From Ignavibacteria bacterium GWF2_33_9 (GTDB lineage: Bacteria > Bacteroidota > Ignavibacteria > Kapaibacteriales > UBA2268): a stretch of 64,000 bases of DNA. The translations under genes and the position numbers were made by a program. The stretch spans positions 3,446-67,445 of the forward strand of contig MHAC01000008.1 in the NCBI GenBank assembly GCA_001804565.1, written 5' to 3'. Shown here in pieces: positions 6,142 through 48,201 of the stretch (within the stretch, counting starts at the first letter, position 1; each line of letters starts with the position of its first letter). The notes beneath the pieces are model-generated. The model ran no database searches. It was not told where the DNA came from and saw only the letters and a program-made list of their open reading frames with translations.

Positions 6142-6495
6142 CTAGTTTTCTTCTTTTTCTATTAATTCCACAAAACCTTTGCTATGCATCATCCCAAAGT
6201 ATTTTGATACTCTTTCGTAAACCGGTTCTATCTTTTCGCCGAATTGTTCTTTCATTATTTTTGCTATTTCGTAAATGTTCCTTTCTCCATTAGATAGCGT
6301 AATACAAGTGGAACCGTATTCATCTAATTTTGCTTCTATGTGCTTTGACTGAAACTTTGGTATTAGGTATTTTTGAGCTAATTTATTCTTAAATCTGGGA
6401 ATTAATAATTTTACTTTATTATCTTCTGTTTTCTCTATTCCAACTTTTCTTTTAGGTATCAATTCTAAAAAATTTGTATCTTTATTTATCTTCAT
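6142..6495 (-). CDS. PqqD-family (RRE-like) small protein
   Basis: The C-terminal 60 aa (ITLSNGERNIYEIAKIMKEQFGEKIEPVYERVSKYFGMMHSKGFVELIE) follow the PqqD pattern of beta-strands then two helices, ending ...FL..L...GLIE. Confidence 0.35.
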   Translation of the reverse strand: MKINKDTNFLELIPKRKVGIEKTEDNKVKLLIPRFKNKLAQKYLIPKFQSKHIEAKLDEYGSTCITLSNGERNIYEIAKIMKEQFGEKIEPVYERVSKYFGMMHSKGFVELIEKEEN

Positions 6496-6602
6496 TCTAT
6501 GTTAAATTAATCCTATTTTTTCTTTTATTTTAATATGCAAATTATTGAAATTTATTAAACCAATCTCTATATCTTTTACAACTTTTGGATTATAAAATCA
6601 AT

Positions 6603-7376
6603 TTAAAAATTCATTAAACCAATGAATAGACCTAGCTGAAATTTAAATCCTGAGTGATTAATACTGCCGGGTACATTATTAATTTTAGCATTATTATTGT
6701 ATTCCCAATTTGAACTAACCAACGGATTATCCAATGAAAATGCATAACTAGCAATCGCACGGAACATTAAGAAATTCGTTACGGCATATTGCAAACTTAG
6801 ACGTGGTTCCAAATTCCAGAAATTTTTGGTCATTTGATGATTGTAATAAATTTCTTTTTCACCTAAATTACCCCAATCCTCTTCTTGTCCGGTTTTGCTG
6901 AGTATAATCTGAGAACTACCGAAACCAAATTGGAAACCCGGTAATATCGCAAAAGCTTTGTAGGGAACGAATGCATAATCCACACCAAAACCTTTATTCG
7001 CAATTTCATAGTTAAAACTGCCATAACTTGTATCTGATTTCATTGTAGATGAAGTGCTGCCGCTATAGCTGAAAAAACCTACGTTCAAATTCTTGACAAT
7101 AATTGCACCGGTTGTAATTTCAAATCCTGATGCGAAAAAAGGAGTTTTCAGTTCGCCAAAACCGAATCTTCCACCAATAGAATTCAAATCATCAAGGTTT
7201 ATAAGATTGTAAGTATAGGTGTATCCGGCTCCAACAGAAAAATACGAATTTGACTCTTGTTGCAATTCTTCTGTATCGAAATCCAAATCATCCAGTTCAT
7301 TCTGATTATCCTGCGATAAAATTACCATTGGCAAAAAAATGATTGCCGCTAAAACTAAAAAGAAAAATTTACGCAT
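6603..7376 (-). CDS. outer-membrane beta-barrel protein
   Basis: Signal peptide, alternating amphipathic beta strands, and a C-terminal aromatic residue (..LMNF). Confidence 0.55.
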   Translation of the reverse strand: MRKFFFLVLAAIIFLPMVILSQDNQNELDDLDFDTEELQQESNSYFSVGAGYTYTYNLINLDDLNSIGGRFGFGELKTPFFASGFEITTGAIIVKNLNVGFFSYSGSTSSTMKSDTSYGSFNYEIANKGFGVDYAFVPYKAFAILPGFQFGFGSSQIILSKTGQEEDWGNLGEKEIYYNHQMTKNFWNLEPRLSLQYAVTNFLMFRAIASYAFSLDNPLVSSNWEYNNNAKINNVPGSINHSGFKFQLGLFIGLMNF

Positions 7377-22863: not shown

Positions 22864-25800
22864 ATGAGTTTCTTCCAAAAATCAGTCGTTTCGAAGTATC
22901 TCAATAACCTGAACAAAGAGACAGTCAGTTCTGCTTTTTTGTTATTCAAAGAACATTTCCTTAATCCCGATATTCAGAAAAATATTCGTTCAATCAACGA
23001 AGAACAATATCAGCAGGGTTTCTTCAATGACCTTTTCGTAAAAGTTCTAGGCTATACTCTTAGTCCTAATTCAAACTTTAATTTACTGCCTGAATACAAA
23101 AACGAAAAGGACAGCAAGAAAGCTGATGGTGCTATTGTCATAAATAACAATGTGAGGGCTGTAATTGAGCTGAAAGATACGAAAACAACGGATTTGGGCA
23201 AGGTGGAAACTCAGGCATTCGGTTACAAGAATAATCAGAAGGACTGCCCCTACGTAATTATCTCGAACTTCGAGAAACTACGCTTCTATGTAGATAATTC
23301 AGTTGACTGCATCGAGTTCAATCTCTTTACTCTTTCTGAGGAAGATTTTACCATTCTTTATCTGATTCTTTCATACGAAAGTATCGAAAAGGACATTCCG
23401 AAGAAGCTGAAGAGCGAAACCGTCAATCAGGACGACATTACAACCAAGAAACTTTATAATGATTATTCCGTTTTCAAGAAAGAACTTTTCCAAAATCTTA
23501 TTGCAAAAAATCCAAATTTCGATAAACTTACTCTTTTCAAAAAATCGCAAAAGCTGATAGACCGACTTCTTTTCATTTTCTTTGCGGAAGACCGTGGCTT
23601 GCTTCCTCCCAATTCCGTCCGGCAAATAATTCAGGATTGGCAGAAGTTAGGTGAACTCGACAGCTATTCTCCGCTTTATTCTCGATTCCAAAAGTTTTTC
23701 GGTTATCTCAATACCGGCTACCAAAGCCCAACGCTAAAGATTTTTGCGTATAATGGCGGACTTTTCGAACCGGATGAAGTGTTGGACTCAATTTCTATTG
23801 ACGATGAGATTCTTAATGAGAATACACTCCGGTTGAGCCGTTATGACTTCGAAACAGAAGTGGACGTGAATATTCTTGGGCATATTTTCGAGCATTCGCT
23901 GAACGAAATCGAGGAAATCCAATCCGAACTTGAAGGTAAAGTTCCTGACAAATCTAAATCCAAACGCAAGAAGGACGGAATTTTCTATACTCCTAAGTAT
24001 ATTACGAAATATATCGTGGAAAATACTCTCGGTACTTTGTGCTCGGAAAAACGGATTGAATTTGGTTTGAATGATGACGAAACTGAAGAAACCAAGCGGA
24101 AAGCTGAAAAGAAGGATTTACTCGAGAGGATTGATTCTTACCGCAAATGGCTTTTGGAACTCACTATTTGCGACCCTGCTTGCGGTTCGGGTGCTTTTCT
24201 GAATCAGGCATTGGACTTTCTGCTGAACGAACATCGCCGACTTGATGAGCTTACAGCCCGAACACTTGATTTGCCGATTGTTTTCTCCGATATAGAAAAT
24301 TCGGTTCTTGAAAATAATATCTTCGGGGTGGACATCAACGAGGAAGCTGTGGAAATAGCCAAGCTCTCGCTTTGGTTACGCACTGCCCAAAGAGGCAGGA
24401 AGCTCAATACTCTAAGTAATAATATAAAATGCGGCAACTCGCTGATAGACGACCCCGCTGTTGCAGGCGATAAAGCGTTCAATTGGCAGGAAGAATTTCC
24501 AAGAGTATTCAAGAGTAATATTTCGGAATTTCATCTTGTAACCTTTGCTACAAAATATTCACGAATACCATTTGAAAATATTCCAAAAAACTATAATGAT
24601 GTATTTGTAAAATTAGATGAAGATGAAAGAATAATATTTGCTAAATGTTTAGCAGAAAAAGCTTCAAAATTAAATTTCAAAATTTTAGCAACTGCAATAC
24701 TACCAGACCATATTCATTTAGTATTAGCTACAATGGGTCATTCACTTTCTAAAATCATGAATGAAATAAAAGGATATTCAGCTTATAAAATAAACGAATA
24801 CAGAAGAAGTAAAAAAAGCAACTACACCATTTATGGTGTAGGAGAAAGAGCAGAAGTGGAAACTCCATCTGATAGCAACTACACCCTTCAGGGTGTAGGA
24901 AAGAACACAAAACAAGGGGTAGAAGATACATCAGAAAACCGTGATACAGCCCACATCGTAAACGATGTGGTTGCAGAACAGGATAGCAACTACACCATTT
25001 ATGGTGTAGGAGAAAAAGCAGAGGCTGATACTCCTTCTGATAGCAACTACACCCTTCAGGGTGTAGGAAAGAACACAAAACAAGGGGTAGAAGGTACATC
25101 AGAAAACCGTGATACAGCCCACATCCTAAAGGATGTGGTTGCAGAACAGGACGACAACTACACCATTTATGGTGTAGGAGAAAGAGCAGAGGCTGATACT
25201 CCTTCTGATAGCAACTACACCCTTCAGGGTGTAGGAGATGAGCCACATCGTGTAGGCAATAAGAAAGATACGACAGACAAAGGTACTCCCCACATCCTAA
25301 AGGATTCACCCCACATCCTAAAGGATGTGGTTGCAGAACATATTTGGGGACGCAGGTATAGCAATACTTTTCTTGATGATGATTCTCACTTATATAACGC
25401 TATAAACTATGTAAATAACAATTATGAAAAACACAAAGAGAAGTGGGGCAATCTAGAGAATGAAAAGATATCCCACATCCTAAAGGATGTGGTTGTAGAA
25501 ATAGATATACACGATAGCAACTACACCCTTCAGGGTGTAGGAAATACAACAGAACATACAGATAGTACTCTGTCCCACATCCTAAAGGATGTGGTTGCAG
25601 AACAGGACGACAACTACACCATTTATAGTGTAGAAGAAAAGAAAGATACAACTGATAGCAACTACACCCTTCAGGGTGTAGGAAAGAACACAAAACAAGT
25701 GGTAGAAGGTACATCAGAAAACCGTGATGAAGCCCACATCCTAAAGGATGTGGTTGCAGAACAGGACCGCAACTACACCATTTATGGTGTAGGAGAAAAG

Positions 25801-27489
25801 AAAGATACGACTGATAGCAACTACACCATTTATGGTGTAGGAGAAAAAGCAGAGACTGACACTCCTTCTGATAGCAACTACACCATTTATGGTGTGGGAG
25901 AAAAGAAAGATACGACTGATAGCAACTACACCCTTCAGGGTGTAGGAGAAAAAGCAGAGACTGACACTCCTTCTGATAGCAACTACACCCTTCAGGGTGT
26001 AGGCAATAAAAACCAATTCTCATACTTTTCCGGCGGCTTCGATGTCATTATCGGCAATCCTCCATACGGTGCTGAATTGGATAATAAAACTAAAGAGTAT
26101 TTTAAAACAATTTATAATGATGTTCATTATAGAACAATTGATACTTTTAACTATTTTATTTCTAAATCTCTAAAAATTCTTAATCATAATGGTTTTTTAT
26201 CTTTAATTGTTCCTAATAATCTTCTATACCAACATGAGTATTTTGTAACAAGAAAATTATTAGTTGAAGAAAATAAGTTGATTAGAGTTATTAATTTAGG
26301 AGATTCTGTATTTCAAGATGCAGATGTACCTACTTGTGTTTTTATTGTCAATAAAATTAAAGCTGAAAATTATAAATTTGAATATAAAGATATTCGAAAT
26401 GAAGTTATTAAGCAAGAAAAAATTAATGAAAATTTCGATTTAATCAGTTCGAATACTATTTTACAATTACCTTCAAATATTATTGGCATCTCTGATAAAA
26501 TTTTTAATTTGATTGAAAAAGTAAATTCTAAATCAGTTTTAATTGATGAAATTGCCGAAGAAGTCGCTTCAGGTATATCTTCTGGAGGAGATAAAATCTT
26601 CAGAATTTCAAAAGAATTTGCAGAATCAAATTTGTTTGAAAAGGAATTATTATATAAAGTTCTAGTTGGAAGTGAAATGAATAGATATGCATTAAATTCC
26701 TCAAATAATCTTATTATTTATTCAGTAAAATCATCAGAAACCGAAAAAAAATCGAATATTTACAATTATTTATTAAATTTCAAAGAACAATTATCTCGAA
26801 AGAGGGAAACTCTAAAAGGAACTTTACCATGGTATTGTTTGCATTGGCCACGTTATAAAGAATTGTTTACAGAAGAAAAAGTCATTTTAAGACAAACATC
26901 TGATGATATACGTGCTACCTATGATAATATGGGATATTTTACACTTGATAGTATATTAATTTTAAAATTGCTAAAAAATGATTATTCATATAAATTCATA
27001 ACATCATTATTAAATTCTAAAATTATAAGTTTCATATATAAGAATCTTACAATGGAAGAAGGAAGGACTTTTGCACAAGTCAAGCCTATTAATATCCGTA
27101 AACTCCCTATCCCAAATATCTCTCCCAATGCCCAGCTCCCTTTCATCGAAAAAGCAGATTTAATGCTGAAGTTGAATAAAGACCTGCAGGAAGGAAAAAA
27201 TGCTTTTATTACCTTCATAAAAGGTGAATATAATTTAGATAGAATCAATACCAAACTGGAAGAATGGTACAATTTGCCTTTCGACAGCTTCACAAAAGAA
27301 CTCGAAAAACTGAAAGTGAAACTAACTTCCACTCAGAAATACGACCTGAAGCCCCTTTTCGACCGAGAAGCCGCCAAACTTTTGGCAATAAAAACCGAAA
27401 TCGAAACCACCGACCGAGAAATAGACCAAATGGTATATAAACTCTACGACCTAACAGAAGAAGAAATCAAGATAGTGGAGGGGAAATAA
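22864..27489 (+). CDS. Type IIG restriction-modification enzyme (N-terminal PD-ExK nuclease plus gamma-class N6-adenine MTase plus TRD; MmeI/Eco57I-like) carrying a 1.5-kb in-frame insertion
   Basis: PD-ExK: ADGAIV...VIELKDTK (nt 23124-23175). MTase motif I is ICDPACGSGAFL (nt ~24172). FNWQEEFPRVF is followed only after about 500 aa by GGFDVIIGNPPYG (motif IV, nt 26032-26070); in family members these two segments are separated by about 10-20 aa. The C-terminus ...MVYKLYDLTEEEIKIVEGK is the hallmark tail of this family. Confidence 0.7.
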   Translation: MSFFQKSVVSKYLNNLNKETVSSAFLLFKEHFLNPDIQKNIRSINEEQYQQGFFNDLFVKVLGYTLSPNSNFNLLPEYKNEKDSKKADGAIVINNNVRAVIELKDTKTTDLGKVETQAFGYKNNQKDCPYVIISNFEKLRFYVDNSVDCIEFNLFTLSEEDFTILYLILSYESIEKDIPKKLKSETVNQDDITTKKLYNDYSVFKKELFQNLIAKNPNFDKLTLFKKSQKLIDRLLFIFFAEDRGLLPPNSVRQIIQDWQKLGELDSYSPLYSRFQKFFGYLNTGYQSPTLKIFAYNGGLFEPDEVLDSISIDDEILNENTLRLSRYDFETEVDVNILGHIFEHSLNEIEEIQSELEGKVPDKSKSKRKKDGIFYTPKYITKYIVENTLGTLCSEKRIEFGLNDDETEETKRKAEKKDLLERIDSYRKWLLELTICDPACGSGAFLNQALDFLLNEHRRLDELTARTLDLPIVFSDIENSVLENNIFGVDINEEAVEIAKLSLWLRTAQRGRKLNTLSNNIKCGNSLIDDPAVAGDKAFNWQEEFPRVFKSNISEFHLVTFATKYSRIPFENIPKNYNDVFVKLDEDERIIFAKCLAEKASKLNFKILATAILPDHIHLVLATMGHSLSKIMNEIKGYSAYKINEYRRSKKSNYTIYGVGERAEVETPSDSNYTLQGVGKNTKQGVEDTSENRDTAHIVNDVVAEQDSNYTIYGVGEKAEADTPSDSNYTLQGVGKNTKQGVEGTSENRDTAHILKDVVAEQDDNYTIYGVGERAEADTPSDSNYTLQGVGDEPHRVGNKKDTTDKGTPHILKDSPHILKDVVAEHIWGRRYSNTFLDDDSHLYNAINYVNNNYEKHKEKWGNLENEKISHILKDVVVEIDIHDSNYTLQGVGNTTEHTDSTLSHILKDVVAEQDDNYTIYSVEEKKDTTDSNYTLQGVGKNTKQVVEGTSENRDEAHILKDVVAEQDRNYTIYGVGEKKDTTDSNYTIYGVGEKAETDTPSDSNYTIYGVGEKKDTTDSNYTLQGVGEKAETDTPSDSNYTLQGVGNKNQFSYFSGGFDVIIGNPPYGAELDNKTKEYFKTIYNDVHYRTIDTFNYFISKSLKILNHNGFLSLIVPNNLLYQHEYFVTRKLLVEENKLIRVINLGDSVFQDADVPTCVFIVNKIKAENYKFEYKDIRNEVIKQEKINENFDLISSNTILQLPSNIIGISDKIFNLIEKVNSKSVLIDEIAEEVASGISSGGDKIFRISKEFAESNLFEKELLYKVLVGSEMNRYALNSSNNLIIYSVKSSETEKKSNIYNYLLNFKEQLSRKRETLKGTLPWYCLHWPRYKELFTEEKVILRQTSDDIRATYDNMGYFTLDSILILKLLKNDYSYKFITSLLNSKIISFIYKNLTMEEGRTFAQVKPINIRKLPIPNISPNAQLPFIEKADLMLKLNKDLQEGKNAFITFIKGEYNLDRINTKLEEWYNLPFDSFTKELEKLKVKLTSTQKYDLKPLFDREAAKLLAIKTEIETTDREIDQMVYKLYDLTEEEIKIVEGK
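24532..26031 (+). mobile_element. in-frame insertion: split RAYT/IS200-like Y1 HUH transposase domain plus REP-like hairpin array
   Basis: EFHLVTFATKYSRIPFE...ILATAILPDHIHLVLAT...IKGYSAYKIN matches the TnpA_IS200/RAYT N-terminal half (yHlvw.tKyRr; HUH motif HIHLV). HIWGRRYSNTFLDDDSHLYNAINYVNNNYEKH (nt 25340-25440) matches the TnpA C-terminal half (WqrSYydhvird...l...YI.nNP). The two halves are separated, and also followed, by palindromic repeat arrays. Confidence 0.6.
24822..26002. repeat. tandem array of three perfect-hairpin palindrome families with GTAG/CTAC ends (REP-like), 168-bp in-frame period
   Basis: H1 CTACACCA-TTTA-TGGTGTAG (e.g. 24822-24841, 24990, 25158, 25614...). H2 CTACACCC-TTCA-GGGTGTAG (24879-24898...). 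H3 CCACATCC-TAAA-GGATGTGG (25118-25138...). A variant CCACATCG-TAAA-CGATGTGG at 24951-24970 keeps the pairing through a compensatory change. H1 start-to-start distances are 168, 168 and 456 nt (24822, 24990, 25158, 25614) and 148, 60 and 55 nt thereafter, so the regular 168-bp period applies only to the first part of the array. Confidence 0.85.
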
Positions 27490-34930: not shown

Positions 34931-34960
34931 AAACGAAAAGGGGCGTTAAGCCCTTTTTTT
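34931..34960 (+). terminator. probable intrinsic terminator
   Basis: AAAAGGGGC-gttaa-GCCCTTTTTTT, a short stem plus T7. Confidence 0.5.
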
Positions 34961-35076: not shown

Positions 35077-36549
35077 CTATATTTTCACAAATTTAATTGC
35101 TGCTCTTTTCGTTCTATAATCAATAATTAATGTATAAAAACCTGATGGGAAATGAGTGAAATTAAGGTCTAATGGCACCCCTCTGTTAACATTGCCTCTA
35201 TATATTTCAGTGCTGTTACCCAGCAGGTCAACTATCTCAATCGTTGCAAATCCTGAAAACTCATTATTCGTTTGTAATCGTGCAAAATCAGAAACGGGAT
35301 TGGGATAGAGTGAATTTTTTTTTAGAGCAATTTCCTGAATTCCTACATCATCTGGAACACCATAGTATATATATACAAATGGTGCATTTGGCCATGGTTT
35401 ATTTGAAATTCTTGGATTTAAAACTAAGAATATTTCTCCTTTTTTTGTGACCGAGGGTGATGCATATGCATAATAATTATAATCATAAATTGTATCAAGA
35501 ATAGGCATGGGAACAAAAGAAAATGTTTCTCCAAAATCATCAGATATCATCAGACTGTCAATATTAAGAGTATCACTAAATCCAAATCCATATGAAGAAC
35601 AACCCAATTTACAAACAATATAATTATTATTACTACAAGCCATTAAAGTAATTGGATTCATACCACCATAAACATTAAGATAGTTCAGTAAATACGTTTT
35701 TTGAGAATTGTTTTTTTCATCATAACCAAAAAGACCATAAATACTTGTTTCATTAATCAAACTATCCCGAATTACATGAGAATAAATAAATTTTCCATCA
35801 TTTAGTTCAATCTGTTTATAAATACTAAATTGTTCTTTATCAAAAAAACATAATTTAATATTCTTAAATAAATCAGTAGTAGAATATAAATTATTAAATG
35901 TTGAAATTAGTATAGTATTACTCTTACTATCATATGTATAATCTTGGAAGGACATTAAATCTTTGTCTATAGCAATATTAAGTGAATCATCTGAAGATTG
36001 CCTGGGAATCAATTGAGTTAATGATTTTTCTTTAGAATCAAATATGAGTAAATAAGTTTGAACTTGGTCATTTGCCTTTATGAAATATTTTCCGTTTATA
36101 TATTCTCTTGGTCTAGTAAACGTCATATTTTTTTCATTAATAATATTAATAGTATCGACAATATTTGTGTGCAAATCTTTGATATATATATTACATAAGC
36201 TATCTTTCTTCATGCCTGTTATTATCAATTTATCGTTACTATCTATTATATAATCAATATAACTACCATTTTGTGGAAAAGCAATTTGCCAGCTTTTTCC
36301 ATTATCATCAGACTGATAAATGCTTCTTTGGTATAAAGTATAATATCCTCTGCCTCCAATGATTAATATACCATTTGAAGATTTTTGAATTTTCGAATAA
36401 ATATAATCAGAAGTGTCTTTAGTACCGTCTATACTTGCTAGTTTTGTCCATTTGTAATGTTTGGTTGAATAAATTTGAGCAGTTAAATTTGCTGAACAAA
36501 ATAATATCATTCCATAAAACATTAAAGTTATTATAACTGATGTTTTCAT
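35077..36549 (-). CDS. BNR/Asp-box repeat protein with T9SS C-terminal sorting domain
   Basis: Signal peptide. Asp-boxes SDDNGKSW and SDDFGETFS. The CTD is LYPNPVSDFARLQ...GFYTLIIDYRTKRAAIKFVKI. Confidence 0.6.
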   Translation of the reverse strand: MKTSVIITLMFYGMILFCSANLTAQIYSTKHYKWTKLASIDGTKDTSDYIYSKIQKSSNGILIIGGRGYYTLYQRSIYQSDDNGKSWQIAFPQNGSYIDYIIDSNDKLIITGMKKDSLCNIYIKDLHTNIVDTINIINEKNMTFTRPREYINGKYFIKANDQVQTYLLIFDSKEKSLTQLIPRQSSDDSLNIAIDKDLMSFQDYTYDSKSNTILISTFNNLYSTTDLFKNIKLCFFDKEQFSIYKQIELNDGKFIYSHVIRDSLINETSIYGLFGYDEKNNSQKTYLLNYLNVYGGMNPITLMACSNNNYIVCKLGCSSYGFGFSDTLNIDSLMISDDFGETFSFVPMPILDTIYDYNYYAYASPSVTKKGEIFLVLNPRISNKPWPNAPFVYIYYGVPDDVGIQEIALKKNSLYPNPVSDFARLQTNNEFSGFATIEIVDLLGNSTEIYRGNVNRGVPLDLNFTHFPSGFYTLIIDYRTKRAAIKFVKI

Positions 36550-36571
36550 TATATATATATTTTTTAGTTGT

Positions 36572-36597
36572 GGGGGGGGGAATTACCCTCCCCCTAC
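36572..36597 (-). repeat. G9 (sense C9) homopolymeric tract plus GC hairpin within 25 nt of the downstream gene's start
   Basis: The + strand reads TGGGGGGGGGAATTACCCTCCCCCTACCC, with G9 at 36572-36580. It lies in the 64-nt gap between the Cys-rich gene's stop and the BNR gene's ATG (36549). Confidence 0.6.
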
Positions 36598-36613
36598 CCA
36601 ATTTAATAATTTA

Positions 36614-37489
36614 TTATTTATTTATAATAAATTTTGTATTTGTAAGGATATGGGACTCATTTGTTATTCGTAAATTATATTTTCCATTAACAAATTTTGA
36701 TAAATCCAAAGTTAATTCATATGTGTCAGAAATCTTATTTATCATAATTTGATAAACTAATTTTCCAAGATTATTATAAATTTCTAAAGTAAATTCTTCT
36801 TTAGAAAAACCATTCAATGTGATCTTAAAATGCCCATCATTTGGATTAGGAATAATTGATGTTGTTAAATAAGCATCAATATTAATATCTTGAACAGGTT
36901 TTTTATATAAATAACCATTTGGGTCACAAATATAAGTACAATTATGTCCCTCCCAATCTAAACAACCAGTATGTTCTTGATCATCATCATCTCCAACAAA
37001 ATGTAAAATTCCATTTTCCACATAATAATAGCTTTTGCAGCAATATACATTATTGGGACAAGGTTGTGATTTAGGGAATGGACCAAGTAAATCTGAGGAC
37101 CAACAAGAAGATAAACTTAGTTTTACAATAGTTCCATCAACTAAATTAAAGGAAATTTTATTTAAAAATCCTTTTAATACTTGTTTTGCAAATTCAACGT
37201 CATTTGGCATATTCCAACAATTATATTGAAGACATGTATAATTGCCTTCCCAGTAGTCAATGTGAAACTGATATTCTTCAGGTGGAATATTGTTTGGACA
37301 ATTTGCAATTCTGTAATGATAATGAACTAATACTACGCAACCATAACAATTTGCTATCCATATTTCTTCTGTACCTTCTTGCCAATCGCCGGTACAATCA
37401 CCTAAATCACAAGGTGGCTCCCATTGCGATAATAATTGAAAATTTATACTAAACATTAGTACAATTAAAATTAATATGAATTTCTTCAT
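36614..37489 (-). CDS. cysteine-rich secreted protein with T9SS C-terminal sorting domain
   Basis: Signal peptide MKKFILILIVLMFSINFQLLSQ (ATG 37489). About 25 Cys residues in the mature region. The CTD is IIPNPNDGHFKITL...KYNLRITNESHILTNTKFIINK. Confidence 0.6.
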   Translation of the reverse strand: MKKFILILIVLMFSINFQLLSQWEPPCDLGDCTGDWQEGTEEIWIANCYGCVVLVHYHYRIANCPNNIPPEEYQFHIDYWEGNYTCLQYNCWNMPNDVEFAKQVLKGFLNKISFNLVDGTIVKLSLSSCWSSDLLGPFPKSQPCPNNVYCCKSYYYVENGILHFVGDDDDQEHTGCLDWEGHNCTYICDPNGYLYKKPVQDINIDAYLTTSIIPNPNDGHFKITLNGFSKEEFTLEIYNNLGKLVYQIMINKISDTYELTLDLSKFVNGKYNLRITNESHILTNTKFIINK

Positions 37490-37540
37490 TTTTGTAACTC
37501 CTAATTGTTTTAAAAGATTAAAAAAGTCTTTTTTTCTTCT

Positions 37541-37700
37541 CGGCTTATTTTCAAACTTCTTAAGCCAAACTTGAGGGCAAGTTTTTGCTGAGGTGGGGGT
37601 AAAGCAAACTTCATTAAACAAGGCTTAAGAACCAAATGTTAGTTTGCACCCCTACGTATATCGAAAGCAAACTCACAATTCATTTTAAATAAATCCCGAA
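37541..37700 (-). promoter_or_regulatory. conserved structured 5' leader/promoter element (copy A) upstream of the Cys-rich T9SS gene
   Basis: About 75% identical to 46620-46770 over about 150 nt. Shared blocks are CATTAAACAAGGCTTAAGA and AGTTTGCA(A/C)CCC. The CTTAAGCC...GGCTTAAG inverted repeat and the ACTTG-loop-CAAGT hairpin are conserved, with a different loop in each copy. Confidence 0.55.
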
Positions 37701-38450
37701 TAATTTTGAAATTGAAATTACTTTGGCAATTATTATTTTTCCTGTAATTACAATCTGATTTTTGCTCATATTTTTTTGGGATTTTGATACAATAAAATTC
37801 GTCTGATTCGTCTCTACGTAAGCATATAAGCCCATCTTGTGTCCTTTTCAGAATATACTTCATGCAATATATTTATTGAAGAAATCATTTTCAATTCTTA
37901 AATATATTTTTCATCTATTAAAAAAATTTCTATGCAAATTACAAAGAAAAAAGAAATAAATAACAACATATTTAAAATATTTTTTCAAATTGCAATCCTT
38001 CCTATATACTAAACACCAAAAATAGCCAAAAATTACACTTGAGATGAAAAAATACTATTGAAAATAGTCCAAAAGGGGTAGAGACTTCGCATGCTACGTC
38101 TTTTAAATGCAATTTAAATTTCACTATTTCTAGTACCTCTATACAGTTCAGAATGACTTACAAATAAAAGTCCCTCACTTTAGGGAGAGGGATTAAGGGA
38201 AAAGTCGAATTTTATAACAGTTTGTTCCCCGTGTCAAGCACGGAAAGACAGTGACATCGTCCCCCTTTTTAATCACTTTTACTTTTCCTGATTTCTTCTG
38301 TAACAAATTCACTCTGAATAAATACTGGAAATTGAAGGACAAATATAATAATTTAAATAAATTGCTGATATATAAACAAAATATGCAATATAAACAAAAT
38401 ATTTCGTTATTATCGTCTTTTAAGTATTGATAATTCAAATACATAAATAT

Positions 38451-44287: not shown

Positions 44288-44387
44288 AATTTCTAATTTG
44301 TTTTAATAAATAAATACAAAATTATGAATAGTAAAGGTAAATTTGATAATAATATTTTTATAGTTTAATCAGACCTATTCTATAAAC

Positions 44388-44415
44388 AAAAATCCCTCGA
44401 TAGAGGGATTTTTGT
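44388..44415 (-). terminator. intrinsic terminator for the upstream minus-strand operon
   Basis: AAATCCCTC-gat-AGAGGGATTT with flanking T/A runs. Confidence 0.7.
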
Positions 44416-44492
44416 TTTGTTGTCATTTCTGCGTATGTAGGAATCTATATATTTCTGTAGAGTTGCTCTCAGTCCTCTCTCTACATAACACT

Positions 44493-45734
44493 TTATAATT
44501 TCACGAATTTAATTATTTCTTTTTTATTTCCATAATCAAGTATTAAAATGTACTGACCAGAAATTAATCCTGAAATGTCTAATTGTAAATTATTTCCCGA
44601 GGTATATCCTTCCCAAAGTAATATTTCATTCCCTTTTAAATTTACAGCTGAGATTTTACCTGAAAATTCTTCTTTTAATTCCAATATTAAATTTGAATTT
44701 GCAGGATTTGGGAATGCCTTTATCTTACTTTCCGTAATTGTCTTAACAGAATTAAATATATTTTTATATTCCGTTCTTATTACACCGTATGTTTTAGAAC
44801 CGGCAAAGAGAAAATCACCTACTCTACAGAAAGAATTTATTCCATCGGAAATACCAATATAGTGCGATGTATATTCAGGCTCCCAAGTCTCACCGAAATC
44901 ATACGAAATATAAATACCATTATGATTTGTTCCTGCAAGAATAGTATTTCCCTCAACATAAACTGCATTAATTCTTTGTAAGGCTAAAGAATCAATAGGA
45001 GTAATTCTCACCCAATTTTCTCCCCAGTCATTTGACCTGCAAATACCTCCTCCAAAGGTTGAGGCATAAAGAAATCCTTCGAAATATTGTAATCCGTATA
45101 TTGCTTGAAAGCTTATACCATTATTTCTTTCGTGCCAGCTTTCACCATCATTCGAAGACATCCAAACTCCGATATTATTCATGCCAAGAAATATTTTATC
45201 ATCAATAATAAGAAATTTATTTGTAGTTAAATATTTCTTCCAATCCGGTAAATCAACAAAATTTTCTTTAATTTCCCAAGGTGTAGAATCTGAAATTTTT
45301 GAACGACTCAAACTAACTGTTCCACCAACAAAAACAAAATCGTCTTTGATTCCAACGATAGTTCTTAAGTTTAAAGATGAATCTCCAATTCCTTCAATAT
45401 ATTGACTCCAGTTATAGCCAAAGTCGGTTGACTTTAAAACGGGCTTGCGACTTGCAACTCCCACAAATACAACATTATCATTGGCTGCAATACTCATCGC
45501 ACCGGCAGTCATAAAATCGGTGTTGATGTACCATGTTTCTCCATGATCAGTACTTATGTCAAGATTCATGTTATCAGTCATGTATAAACGATTACCATAT
45601 AATGTTAACTGAACTGCTAACATAGATGTCCCATTTGGTGGATTTTTCTGTTGCCAAAATGGATTTGATAATAATGCGTAATGCGTGAAGGCAATAAATA
45701 AAATTACCCAATGCAGCAAATTTTTAGTTTTCAT
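44493..45734 (-). CDS. BNR/Asp-box repeat (Ycf48-like beta-propeller) protein with T9SS C-terminal sorting domain
   Basis: Signal peptide MKTKNLLHWVILFIAF. Asp-boxes STDHGETW, STDFGYNWS, SNDGESWH, SNDWGENW, SYDFGETW. CTD: KAFPNPANSNLILEL...GQYILILDYGNKKEIIKFVKL. Confidence 0.65.
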   Translation of the reverse strand: MKTKNLLHWVILFIAFTHYALLSNPFWQQKNPPNGTSMLAVQLTLYGNRLYMTDNMNLDISTDHGETWYINTDFMTAGAMSIAANDNVVFVGVASRKPVLKSTDFGYNWSQYIEGIGDSSLNLRTIVGIKDDFVFVGGTVSLSRSKISDSTPWEIKENFVDLPDWKKYLTTNKFLIIDDKIFLGMNNIGVWMSSNDGESWHERNNGISFQAIYGLQYFEGFLYASTFGGGICRSNDWGENWVRITPIDSLALQRINAVYVEGNTILAGTNHNGIYISYDFGETWEPEYTSHYIGISDGINSFCRVGDFLFAGSKTYGVIRTEYKNIFNSVKTITESKIKAFPNPANSNLILELKEEFSGKISAVNLKGNEILLWEGYTSGNNLQLDISGLISGQYILILDYGNKKEIIKFVKL

Positions 45735-45746
45735 CATCGCCTCCAT

Positions 45747-46553
45747 TTACCATAAAAACAGTGGATTAGTGCAACCGGCTGTACATTCTGAATTCATCAC
45801 CATTGTTACTGTATAAGTAATACCCAATATATCAACAGTATCATTTACAGATAAACAAGGTGGACCGGATGGATTAACCGGACATGGTTCTGATAGTTGA
45901 CTCGGTAATCGTTCCCATATAGTTTCATCGTATTGATTCTGGCAAAAGAGAAAATCTGTGTAACAACAAACTTCATCATTGCATATTTTAGGTACATATA
46001 CAACTGCATCAGGTTCGCCCGGTGCAGACAATCGTGCACCACATACTTTTTTACAACTTGCAATTGCATATTTCCTAAAACGCATTTTCTCGGGGCAAGG
46101 GAATTGGCTCTTAATACTTTGGAAAAGAACAGAGTCTAAATCCTTATATAAGGTTATTTCCAAGGCATCGTAATTTGATTGATCTAATGGATTATTGATA
46201 CATCCATTATCACTTGGAGGTGGTTCAGGTGGACCGGGATGTAAGAAACATATTAAATCAGGACAATCGTATATGTTTACTTTGATGTAATTTAGGTCAA
46301 TAAAAACAGTAGGTTCTGGGCAATCACATGTTTTCATCCTATAGAAAACTGTGATATCGCATGTAATTCCTTGAAAATTAACTGGTATTGTTATATTTCC
46401 TGTAGTTTCAATACTACAATTACTACACAATGCAAAATCTTGTTGATAACAAGAAGTAAATGGCCTTCCAAGACTTGTTTGAGAATAAACAAAACTACTC
46501 CCAAACATCAAAAGAAATGCAAATATGTAGTATATTTTTATAATGCGTTTCAT
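45747..46553 (-). CDS. cysteine-rich secreted protein (no CTD), immediately upstream of and zero-gap coupled to the BNR T9SS gene
   Basis: Signal peptide MKRIIKIYYIFAFLLMFGSSFVYSQ. 29 Cys residues (CDC, CPDLIC, CxxxC patterns). Pro-rich PGPPEPPPSD. Its stop abuts the ATG of the downstream gene. Confidence 0.55.
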   Translation of the reverse strand: MKRIIKIYYIFAFLLMFGSSFVYSQTSLGRPFTSCYQQDFALCSNCSIETTGNITIPVNFQGITCDITVFYRMKTCDCPEPTVFIDLNYIKVNIYDCPDLICFLHPGPPEPPPSDNGCINNPLDQSNYDALEITLYKDLDSVLFQSIKSQFPCPEKMRFRKYAIASCKKVCGARLSAPGEPDAVVYVPKICNDEVCCYTDFLFCQNQYDETIWERLPSQLSEPCPVNPSGPPCLSVNDTVDILGITYTVTMVMNSECTAGCTNPLFLW

Positions 46554-46619: not shown

Positions 46620-46770
46620 TACTCCAAACATCTTAAGTCTAAAACTTGATTTCAAGTTTTTACTGGAGTGGGTATCGCAAATTACATTAAACAAGGCTTA
46701 AGACGAAAATATAAGTTTGCAACCCTTTGTATTTCGAATTCATACTCACAATAGAGGACATACAGTTTAG
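46620..46770 (-). promoter_or_regulatory. conserved structured 5' leader/promoter element (copy B)
   Basis: Paralogous to 37541-37700 (see that entry). Lies 70-220 nt upstream of the 45747-46553 gene's ATG. Confidence 0.55.
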
Positions 46771-47011
46771 TGGTATATTGTGAAGTAAATTGTATATCTT
46801 GAAAATGATTTATTTTAAGGTTTGTTTCCTCATTTAAAACAATAATTGAAGAATCAAAGATTTTTTCTTTGATGAATTTAATAGGAGTTATTTTCGAAAT
46901 ATTATAATGTTTATTAGTAGGTTTTGCCCACTTTGACGGCTCAGCGGACATCTTATCGCTAATAATGAATAAAAATGCAGCTATTAAACAATATGTAAAA
47001 ACTCTTTTCAA
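46682..47011 (-). CDS. small secreted hypothetical protein (the ORF may in part reflect the conserved leader element)
   Basis: Signal peptide MKRVFTYCLIAAFLFIISDKMSA. Its C-terminal YCEYEFEIQRVAN is encoded by the conserved element, and the 37639-37863 ORF ends with the similar NCEFAFDIRRGAN. Confidence 0.3.
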   Translation of the reverse strand: MKRVFTYCLIAAFLFIISDKMSAEPSKWAKPTNKHYNISKITPIKFIKEKIFDSSIIVLNEETNLKINHFQDIQFTSQYTTKLYVLYCEYEFEIQRVANLYFRLKPCLM

Positions 47012-47097: not shown

Positions 47098-48201
47098 TCA
47101 ATACATATCTAACCTTGGGAATAATATTTTTAAACATTGGATAAAAATTTCGCCACATTGTTTTATACAACTGTTATTTCCTTGACCACACATATTCAAG
47201 CACAAATTGTAAGCATCATAACAAATTCTAAGGTTTGGATCTACAGCAGTCATTTGAATATAACTACCAGAATCGCCTGCTCCAAGTATGTATCCACATT
47301 GATAATGAATACAATTTATTGAGTTATTATTTCCAACATTTAACGTTGTCCATGCGTTACCATTATCATCAGTTTGATATATTAAACCATTATCAGCACA
47401 TACTACAATAGAACTATCAGAAAATGCAACTAGAGAGGTGAAATTAACTCCTGATGAAGTTTGTGGCGGTGCAATTGAATCCCAACTTTGTCCCCCATTT
47501 GTTGTTTTACAAATTAATTTATCTTCGCCAACAACATAACCGACTAAGCTATCTACAAACTTTAATGACAATATATTCTTATTGATGTTAATATTCGAAG
47601 ATTGCCAATTAGTGCCTTGGTTTGTTGATTTTGAGATAAAACCTCCAGTACCCCCAACATAAATTAAATTACTATCTGACTGGAAAACGTAGATAGAATT
47701 TAACGAATTAACAATAAAATACTGATAATTCACACTCCAATTACTGCCGCCATTCGTTGTTTTTAAAATAATTCCATTATTTCCAACTGCCCATCCAAGA
47801 TCTGAATTTGAAAATCTTATTTGATTTATTCTGGACTGGATTTGCATATTCATATCATCCCAATTTTGTCCTCCGTCAATTGTTTTTGCTGCTTTTCCAT
47901 TATCTCCAGCTACCCAACCAACCAGAGAATCAATAAAAAATATTGAACGTAAGTTTACATAATTTGAACTTGATATTACATTGTTTATTCTTTGCCAAGA
48001 CTGACCGTTGTTTGATAAAAATACTACATTACTATCTGCACAGATATTGTTTCTCATATCTTCACTAATAAAGCAAGAATTAAGATTAATGTTCGTATTC
48101 AATGTCTTGGTTGTATCAGTTTGGGAAAATAAGATAGTAGGAAAAAAAGCAAGAATTAACAGCATTACTCTAAAAAAGCAAATTTGAAAATGATTTTTCA
48201 T
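47098..48201 (-). CDS. BNR/Asp-box repeat beta-propeller protein with Cys-rich C-terminal tail
   Basis: Signal peptide. Asp-boxes DGGQNWD, TNGGSNW, TNQGTNWQ, TNGGQSWD, DDNGNAWT. The C-terminal 60 aa contain 10 Cys (CYDAYNLCLNMCGQGNNSCIKQCGEIFIQC). Confidence 0.6.
   Translation of the reverse strand: MKNHFQICFFRVMLLILAFFPTILFSQTDTTKTLNTNINLNSCFISEDMRNNICADSNVVFLSNNGQSWQRINNVISSSNYVNLRSIFFIDSLVGWVAGDNGKAAKTIDGGQNWDDMNMQIQSRINQIRFSNSDLGWAVGNNGIILKTTNGGSNWSVNYQYFIVNSLNSIYVFQSDSNLIYVGGTGGFISKSTNQGTNWQSSNININKNILSLKFVDSLVGYVVGEDKLICKTTNGGQSWDSIAPPQTSSGVNFTSLVAFSDSSIVVCADNGLIYQTDDNGNAWTTLNVGNNNSINCIHYQCGYILGAGDSGSYIQMTAVDPNLRICYDAYNLCLNMCGQGNNSCIKQCGEIFIQCLKILFPRLDMY

Follow-up and report, generated by a model that had tools for sequence, protein, structure and literature searches.

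We analysed a 64,000-nucleotide (nt) stretch of contig MHAC01000008.1 of Ignavibacteria bacterium GWF2_33_9, hereafter the window, in which two minus-strand loci each encode a cysteine-rich (Cys-rich) protein, A1 or A2, followed by a protein ending in a type IX secretion system (T9SS) sorting domain, B1 or B2. Both loci belong to a family of cassettes headed by a conserved leader, and a tandem 8-nt repeat in this leader differs in length between copies of the same locus. The explanation that we favour, and hold to be somewhat probable, is that both loci are copies of a lineage-specific, multi-copy Ignavibacteria cassette encoding variable secreted or surface proteins that are switched by the repeat (phase variation). 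From these sequences we infer that a small open reading frame (ORF) in the leader, termed S, would control A and B, that A and B may form a complex, and how the pair may function. The leader, S and the polymorphic repeat were the most informative features of the loci and had been absent from the original prediction, which described a duplicated module of a Cys-rich protein and a propeller protein.

The four ORFs of that prediction were recovered on the minus strand at the same positions:

36614..37489, minus strand, A1: 291 amino acids (aa); signal peptide, Cys-rich domain of ~185 aa and T9SS sorting domain
35077..36549, minus strand, B1: 490 aa; degenerate Asp-box propeller-like protein with T9SS sorting domain
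45747..46553, minus strand, A2: 268 aa; signal peptide and Cys-rich protein, with no sorting domain or Pfam match
44493..45734, minus strand, B2: BNR/sortilin-type propeller with five Asp-boxes and T9SS sorting domain; alternative start at 45746

The spacing between the genes was short, as expected, with 64 nt between A1 and B1 and 0 to 12 nt between A2 and B2.

A shared leader and a cassette family

Automatic annotation of other contigs had put small ORFs encoding repeated peptides (ALWLYGFM…) ahead of the A genes, and the upstream DNA was therefore compared. Two leader copies were found by the resulting profile in the window, and no others:

37552..37813, minus strand, leader copy 1: extent of the profile match (nhmmer E 3.9e-74), aligned with eight other copies
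46625..46868, minus strand, leader copy 2 (nhmmer E 5.7e-46)

Direct comparison of the two copies by blastn showed 78.5% identity over 130 nt (E 1.5e-24). Outside the leader, only the last 53 nt of the B genes were shared at the DNA level in the blastn comparison. The exact 19-mer TCTTAAGCCTTGTTTAATG occurred at two sites of the window only, each upstream of a Cys-rich gene, compared with 0.04 occurrences expected by chance. It is this shared leader DNA, and not protein similarity, that relates the two loci. A lack of significant similarity between the two Cys-rich proteins, or between the propellers beyond generic Asp-boxes, had been named beforehand as evidence against a duplicated module. 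Such a lack is indeed what we found at the protein level, as described below, and the part of the proposal that stands is a single module recurring at both loci.

Further copies were recovered by a pattern scan of Joint Genome Institute (JGI) metagenomes and by looking up predicted S proteins. The leader was present in L001 (two copies), L004/L016, L007 (two copies), L012, L013, L014, L015, L024, L025 and L026, and in a diverged form in L020; in related Ignavibacteria contigs, no fewer than 12 different Cys-rich genes follow it. In all copies but one, the gene after the leader encodes a signal-peptide protein with 7 to 20 cysteines and a locus-specific sequence; the gene after A usually encodes a BNR/sortilin-type or degenerate propeller with the sorting domain PF18962. 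Every contig recovered with an A1-type or A2-type gene had the matching B-type gene after it, and distant A1 relatives that lack the leader were followed by BNR/sortilin proteins of 499 to 749 aa with sorting domains. The A-B gene pair is thus a conserved unit, and the proposed order of a Cys-rich gene and then a T9SS propeller gene held for orthologues and distant relatives of both pairs on other contigs. A scan for the leader pattern in a collection with one genome per species, from which both the lineage and the exact pattern are absent, returned only a chance match in Ensifer. In Rfam, the window had a single match above the gathering threshold, to a tRNA, and nothing better than noise (E>3) emerged when 37480-38430 was scanned permissively.

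These data bear on the simplest alternative, that two unrelated Cys-rich proteins happen to lie beside two unrelated T9SS cargo genes. Coincidence would account for the absence of significant pairwise protein similarity beyond the sorting domain. However, it does not accommodate the shared leader, the specific sorting-domain sub-type and the same three-part layout at 12 or more loci. The 19-mer count, the leader blastn match and the layout recurring across loci effectively refute it, and we give it next to no credence.

A second explanation is that the leader and the sorting-domain 3' end serve as homology arms or attachment sites for the exchange of A-B cassettes, by recombination-based antigenic variation or in an integron-like manner, with the repeat being secondary. 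The confinement of DNA similarity between modules to both of their ends would be expected from such exchange, as would the presence of modules within 3 to 10 kb of each other (window, L001 and L007). Furthermore, leaders are more alike within a genome than between lineages, and L007 contains an identical 95-nt segment that is consistent with gene conversion. However, no recombinase or integrase gene was seen adjoining any module, the flanking genes are housekeeping genes that differ between loci, and orthologous modules keep the same neighbours; for example, L027 shares a TonB receptor neighbour with the window. We regard it as improbable that cassette exchange is the principal role of these sequences; exchange via the two conserved ends agrees with the data and is compatible with phase variation.

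Several observations were made on the leader loci of other contigs. In L007 (1-95 and 3085-3180), two tandem A-B modules share the identical 95-nt leader segment and then diverge, and the two B genes end in nearly identical sorting-domain sequences; this suggests either gene conversion between neighbouring cassettes or an assembly chimera. Public contigs often start within the leader (L006 at position 1, just after the repeat tract), and others start 30 to 76 nt upstream of the A gene (L017 30, L018 76 and L019 75). Assembly breaks at these loci because the leader is a multi-copy, length-variable element. In L001 (1-7400), an A2-type module lies just downstream of a polymorphic-toxin/immunity array, with DUF4329, Imm-NTF2-2, Tox-MPTase3 and an RHS-core-like remnant, and a ParE/RelB pair.

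Module 1 has an additional conserved block, ~320 nt long and upstream of S, which is shared with some other modules:

37933..38250, minus strand, upstream conserved block: ~80% identical to L025 4686-5005 (blastn E 1.5e-75)

It was also ~80% identical to L026 4695-4963 (blastn E 3.6e-58). Two hairpins were noted in the block: a palindromic one, AGACGTAGC-AT-GCTACGTCT, which is perfect in L025 but not in the window, and one resembling a terminator, CCCTCTCC…GGAGAGG. The block may hold the promoter; a small RNA or a repeat element would be other candidates.

Length polymorphism of the octanucleotide repeat

The ORF S occupies the 5' two-thirds of the leader, and tandem 8-nt units lie near its 5' end. 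The units are GCTTATAT, GGCTTTAT or GGCTTATT, with 1 to 11 of them across loci, and they translate to a hydrophobic peptide. In the window, the following features were assigned to S:

37814..37888, minus strand, N-terminal fragment of S1: ATG and 24 codons (MISSINILHEVYSEKDTRWAYMLT) to TAG, the frame-shifted 'OFF' state
37816..37831, minus strand, octanucleotide repeat tract: GCTTATAT and then GCTTACGT (one perfect and one degenerate unit)
37639..37815, minus strand, C-terminal frame of S1: RDESDEFYCIK...MNCEFAFDIRRGAN and then a stop; out of frame with the ATG here
46682..47011, minus strand, S2: 109-codon ORF with a TTG start, the C-terminal part of which is homologous to S (…CEYEFEIQRVANLYFRLKP…)

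The N-terminus of S2 is hydrophobic as well, and it is not built of repeats.

The contig L027 represents the A1 locus of the window in another assembly. The two sequences are 100% identical over ~520 nt except for 56 extra nt in L027, which correspond to exactly seven GCTTATAT units (8+1 units as opposed to 1+1 in the window). As a result, S in L027 is initiated by ATG and stays in frame over 101 aa (P0023), whereas the ATG at 37888 in the window meets a stop after 24 codons. A further variant, P0020 (93 aa, from another assembly), has one unit more than the window and is also in frame, so that the S1 N-terminus continues in both proteins. At the orthologous A1h locus, the tract has seven units in L004 and four in L005, and L006 breaks at the tract. 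Repeat length thus changes in natural populations in 8-nt steps, which moves S in and out of frame; S is OFF in the window and ON in the other assembly of the same locus. Two features of a contingency locus are present, a repeat unit within an ORF that is not a multiple of three and length polymorphism that shifts the frame; reversible high-frequency switching with a change in phenotype or expression is predicted.

In the more distant relative GCA_964637845.1 (L020), (GGAACTAT)x2 is present at the usual repeat position of the diverged leader (1330-1390), and a second 8-nt repeat, (TTTTGTGC)n, lies between the leader and the A gene.

Coding potential of S and the predicted leader hairpin

In all window-type copies examined, the S frame had no internal stops, compared with 1 to 2 and 3 to 8 stops in the other two frames. 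It also showed an in-frame 3-nt indel and an excess of variation at the third codon position, and synonymous codon differences made up 25% in the S frame vs 13 to 16% in the shifted frames. A profile of S found 11 predicted proteins, of which at least three (P0022, P0023 and P0026) came from loci used in the query alignment, and one of the 11 was from Ignavibacteria bacterium GWF2_33_9. S2 was recovered as P0026 with E 5e-22; this match is not independent evidence because the query alignment held the C-terminal 62 residues of S2 itself.

After S, or overlapping its end, the leader is predicted to form a hairpin, H1, of the general form GGGGTGCAAACT … AGTTTGC-NNNN-CCCC:

37596..37652, minus strand, H1 copy 1: GGGGTGCAAACT ... 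AGTTTGC-TTTA-CCCC; overlaps the end of the S frame
46670..46725, minus strand, H1 copy 2

H1 was part of the predicted minimum-free-energy fold of all nine window-type leaders (9/9), and L015 and L001b keep its helix with altered but complementary arms. A pair of 10-bp arms, CTTAAGCC/GGCTTAAG (37558-37630), interleaves with H1. The AGTTTGC motif, partly read by eye, occurs twice in the leader, and both occurrences are complementary to GCAAACT. RNAalifold on four leaders, in an alignment that misplaces L015, retained only the invariant 10-bp outer stem, with no covariation.

The main rival to our explanation draws on the same region. According to it, the leader is a non-coding promoter or 5' untranslated region (5'-UTR) element in which the repeat tunes transcription, or mRNA structure or processing, with S being incidental or a by-product. 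Conservation at the nucleotide level extends over all three codon positions and continues past the variable stop of S, the position of that stop and the start codon are not conserved, and the conserved hairpin with its interleaved arms would suit an element acting as RNA. There is also a precedent in hmw1A, where a transcribed repeat acts via 5'-UTR structure (PMC12721329). However, no copy has a closed S frame, and even the most diverged copy (46682-47011) stays open over 109 codons in DNA of 30% G+C. The in-frame indel and the codon-position bias in S, a pre-repeat peptide that is kept in frame (…VNSK.GAR…) and the lack of an Rfam family match likewise weigh against a non-coding leader. We consider this alternative unlikely on balance, while taking it seriously.

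Cys-rich A proteins

A1 and A2 are the most Cys-rich real proteins of the window, but their cysteines had been overestimated at 25 to 29; we counted 14 in A1 and 20 in A2. The sorting domain, which had been placed only on the propeller partners, was confirmed in B1 and B2 but is also present in A1, with PF18962 at 45.4 bits (cut-off 27) and TIGR04183 at 37.7 bits (cut-off 23). All Pfam matches of A1 (PF18962, DUF3244, CHU_C and FlgD_ig) fall within this C-terminal domain (residues 208-289). In contrast to A1, A2 had no Pfam or NCBIfam match. No Pfam family matched the Cys-rich domain of A1 or A2 at E<=0.1, and none matched four other A proteins at E<=1.

The families of A1 and A2 are very narrow: when 1.84 billion representatives were searched exhaustively with a profile of the A1 domain, 11 members were found at E<=1e-3. 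Two long proteins in this search were disregarded: P0013 (523 aa), matched in six stretches, is a tandem-repeat protein of no relation, and P0015 (3006 aa, 17 stretches) has the same multi-stretch pattern. Relatives of A2 included P0002 (58% identity) and L025_A (E 4e-14). In L013, a second Cys-rich gene (6489-7214; 241 aa, 10 Cys), a paralogue of the module's first A gene (E 5e-12), lies directly 3' of the B gene and has no leader or partner of its own.

Pairwise alignment of A1 with A2, which had been proposed as a check of their kinship, was not significant (BLASTP E 0.38), and neither was a comparison of their small families by hhalign (E 0.037). With larger profiles, the A1 and A2 families aligned at E 0.0026 over 138 collinear columns with the cysteines aligned, and the A1 family aligned with L001_192 at E 1e-4. 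Weak links were also found between other sub-families (L014_A/L024_A, 4e-10; L001_192/P0017, 5e-5; A2h/P0006, 3e-4), and a C-x(2-5)-CC-x3-[YF] motif, read by eye, is common to most A proteins. Since the support from the larger profiles was marginal, homology among the A proteins is graded as suggestive; they probably share an ancestor and have diverged very fast, although this falls short of proof.

AlphaFold2 models had a mean predicted local distance difference test score (pLDDT) of 78 for A1 and 54 for A2, the latter reaching ~75 over residues 40-150. The two models have the same order of elements, with three strands, a short helix, a long helix and three or four strands. In a Foldseek search against the Protein Data Bank (PDB), the A1 model was matched only via its Ig-like sorting domain, and the A2 model and the Cys-rich domain of A1 had no match. 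The A proteins constitute a disulfide-rich class of weakly linked subfamilies. No structure of a relative has been solved, and BNR/sortilin-type T9SS cargo is the recurrent partner of the class.

B proteins and sorting domains

Both B proteins had been described as Asp-box beta-propellers, and this holds for B2, which has five motifs, a BNR match of 32.3 bits (cut-off 27) and a Sortilin-Vps10 match (PF15902) of 33.2 bits (cut-off 33). B1, however, shows two weak motifs only and, with 19.2 bits, stays below the BNR cut-off of 27. Its identity to L007_B1p, a protein with BNR/sortilin matches of its own, is 24%. The propellers were not found to be similar beyond generic Asp-boxes: B1 and B2 matched significantly only in the sorting domain (E 1e-10), and when it was removed a single Asp-box aligned (hhalign E 0.008). 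A profile of the B1 family likewise matched only sorting domains among solved structures. The [FY]R[IV]P sialidase motif was absent from B1, B2 and the third propeller of the window (47098-48201), and none of the three matched a sialidase family in Pfam or NCBIfam.

The sorting domains of B1 and B2 scored above the cut-offs for PF18962 (34.3 and 34.8 bits; cut-off 27) and TIGR04183 (27.4 and 32.3 bits; cut-off 23). PF18962 is carried by at least five proteins of the window. When the C-terminal tails of all ORFs of 150 aa or more in the window were searched with phmmer, the B1 and B2 domains matched only each other. They represent a distinct sub-type ending in …LLIDYG.K.E..K..K. In most cassettes the sorting domain is found only on B.

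All four proteins have signal-peptide-like N-termini, which for A1 and A2 agrees with the original prediction; these were recognised by eye from positive charge at the start, a hydrophobic core and an A/S-x-A/S site with Q as the next residue. A1, B1 and B2 accordingly have both the sorting domain and the signal peptide of T9SS type A cargo, and their export is predicted. A Gln follows the likely cleavage site in A1, A2, B1 and the 47098-48201 protein (…LLS|QWEPP, …VYS|QTSLG, …LTA|QIYST and …LFS|QTDT, respectively). A similar 'Q-rule' has been described for Bacteroidetes (PMC5837995); the present examples come from an Ignavibacteria genome.

The third propeller (47098-48201, minus strand) is of the Ycf48/PSII_BNR type (E 4.5e-24) and has no T9SS sorting domain. 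Its Cys-rich C-terminal tail was correctly noted earlier: eight cysteines lie in the last 71 residues, with the spacing C-x6-C-x3-C-x6-C-x3-C-x6-C. The idea that this protein is a fused version of the Cys-rich unit and the propeller was not borne out. The tail resembles neither the A1 nor the A2 family (hhalign E 0.5 and 0.14) and was rejected as a fused A domain; moreover, the gene lies in a separate transcription unit upstream of the second leader. It is immediately upstream of that leader and is followed by a terminator-like hairpin.

The pairs had earlier been suggested to be a lectin/hydrolase or a secreted toxin/effector pair, but the Cys-rich domains had no match in Pfam, NCBIfam, PADLOC or the PDB that would point to either function. 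One form of this suggestion is that the pairs are secreted toxins or effectors with a partner or immunity protein. The products are predicted to be secreted, highly polymorphic and disulfide-rich, and the A2-type module of L001 is just downstream of polymorphic-toxin cassettes (Tox-MPTase3, Imm-NTF2-2 and RHS core), which would fit such a role. However, Pfam, NCBIfam and PADLOC searches with S, A and B turned up no domain typical of toxins, immunity proteins or defence systems. Neither partner looks like a cytoplasmic immunity protein, because both have signal peptides, and the toxin neighbourhood occurs at one locus only. Domain searches, PADLOC included, gave no support to toxin or defence-system readings, and we consider a toxin pair very improbable.

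A proposed model of repeat-switched variable protein pairs

In the phase-variable cassette explanation that we favour, each cassette consists of three parts. The first is the conserved leader, in which S carries a hydrophobic N-terminal stretch encoded by the repeat and the predicted hairpin overlaps the end of S. The second is the disulfide-rich secreted protein A, diverging so fast that paralogues are barely or not recognisable, and the third is the BNR/sortilin-type, sometimes degenerate, propeller B with its particular sorting-domain sub-type. Changes in repeat number by slipped-strand events would act as a stochastic switch, and translation of S through the hairpin region may set the expression of A and B by translational coupling or polarity. 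A and B might then cooperate as a variable pair that is secreted or displayed on the surface via the T9SS. Their diversity and switching could reflect diversifying selection on exposed proteins, exerted for example by phage or predators, or acting on attachment or recognition.

Several points weigh against this model. The coding signal in S is only moderate, and because all three codon positions are conserved, constraint at the RNA or DNA level, or gene conversion, may be its main cause. Translation of S and its effect on A and B are proposed from sequence features, and the A genes possess Shine-Dalgarno-like sites of their own. The fold z-scores of the 3' leader are weak (-0.5 to -1.9), so that H1 is to be taken as a hypothetical structure, and its covariation comes from two sequences. 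The differences in repeat length derive from assemblies; the short allele is unlikely to result from repeat collapse by an assembler, because the 16-nt tract is shorter than any usual assembly k-mer. Tracts of (GGCTTTAT)n hold an ATG in every frame, by which a strict on/off switch would be blunted. Two loci depart from the layout: the L026 leader directly precedes a B-type gene with no A gene, and the second gene of L012 encodes a lipoprotein instead of a propeller. Finally, the homology of A1 and A2 is statistically marginal and the A2 model is of low confidence (pLDDT 54).

A more far-reaching version of the model, which we think doubtful, is that the cassettes constitute a dedicated surface-diversification system, in which a dozen or more A-B paralogues act as receptor or adhesin pairs, and an octanucleotide switch in the conserved, translated leader controls each pair on its own. 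If so, the leader and the sorting-domain end would serve also as arms for cassette exchange, and each cell would display a stochastic subset of a hypervariable repertoire. The system would then resemble antigenic variation of the opa/pilS type, driven by phage, predators or kin recognition and not by host immunity, and the A proteins would represent a new disulfide-rich fold capping sortilin-type propellers.

Comparison with known systems

Repeat-driven contingency loci are already known as a mechanism class and, to our knowledge, almost only from host-adapted pathogens. The opa genes of Neisseria have CTCTT repeats within the region coding for the signal peptide. Like opa-type loci, the cassettes have, close to the start of an ORF, a repeat whose unit length is not divisible by three and which encodes a hydrophobic stretch; the copy number varies between otherwise identical sequences and shifts the frame, and several paralogous loci occur per genome. 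They differ from opa in their rare 8-nt unit and in that the shifting frame belongs to a small conserved ORF of the leader and not to the variable surface proteins, which are encoded by separate downstream genes. The host is a free-living groundwater lineage of Ignavibacteria and not a host-adapted pathogen, and switching with an effect on expression is predicted here.

In Haemophilus influenzae hmw1A, a heptanucleotide repeat is transcribed within a structured 5'-UTR; it is non-coding, forms one arm of a hairpin and acts through RNase III (PMC12721329). The cassettes similarly have a repeat upstream of a gene for an adhesin-type secreted protein, in a long conserved leader with a predicted hairpin. 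However, the repeat here is part of an open frame and is separated by ~170 nt from the conserved hairpin downstream. The leader also recalls leader-peptide attenuation or translational coupling, in which a short ORF ends in or near a conserved hairpin upstream of structural genes. In contrast to attenuation, no U-tract terminator follows the hairpin, no sensing codons are evident, and S, with 55 to 110 codons, exceeds the usual length of a leader peptide.

At the protein level, the VPS10/sortilin domain consists of an Asp-box beta-propeller packed against a Cys-rich 10CC module. The association of the sortilin/BNR-type propeller B2 with a disulfide-rich module is reminiscent of it, but the Cys-rich unit is here a separate protein encoded upstream, and a physical interaction between A and B would be a prediction. 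The Cys-rich domain of A1 and A2 had no Pfam match to the sortilin C-terminal (10CC) family. As in T9SS type A cargo (Por_Secre_tail, PF18962/TIGR04183), A1, B1 and B2 end in the domain above cut-offs; unlike such cargo, A2 and most other A proteins have no such domain, and those of the B proteins form the distinct sub-type.

Full-text searches found no paper on phase variation in Ignavibacteria, or on phase-variable loci or repeats in connection with type IX secretion. Novel aspects are the repeat unit of eight nucleotides, its placement within a conserved leader ORF that hypervariable downstream genes have in common, the host and the families of proteins. Repeat-length polymorphism was directly observed at a multi-copy cassette family in uncultivated groundwater Ignavibacteria, an indication that free-living subsurface communities, too, may switch exposed proteins stochastically. 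In addition, the leader is a short DNA marker by which hypervariable genes for secreted proteins can be located where sequence similarity fails to connect them.

Other features of the window

Predicted hairpins follow both B genes:

34936..34957, minus strand, terminator-like hairpin 3' of B1
44384..44417, no strand assigned, 15-bp hairpin 3' of B2, which could terminate in both directions

Scans for sigma-70-type promoters were at chance level (74 found vs 74.6 expected), and we therefore make no promoter claim. A 207-aa ORF with 12.6% Cys (25400-26023, minus strand) was dismissed as a Cys-rich candidate because it is antisense inside the gene for a 1541-aa protein. The latter, at 22864-27489 on the plus strand, is an MmeI/Eco57I-type restriction-modification fusion protein, and an IS200-like Y1 transposase domain lies inside this ORF (residues 575-652). 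The 22864-27489 region has a raised G+C content of 0.40 and a strong AT skew of 0.217.

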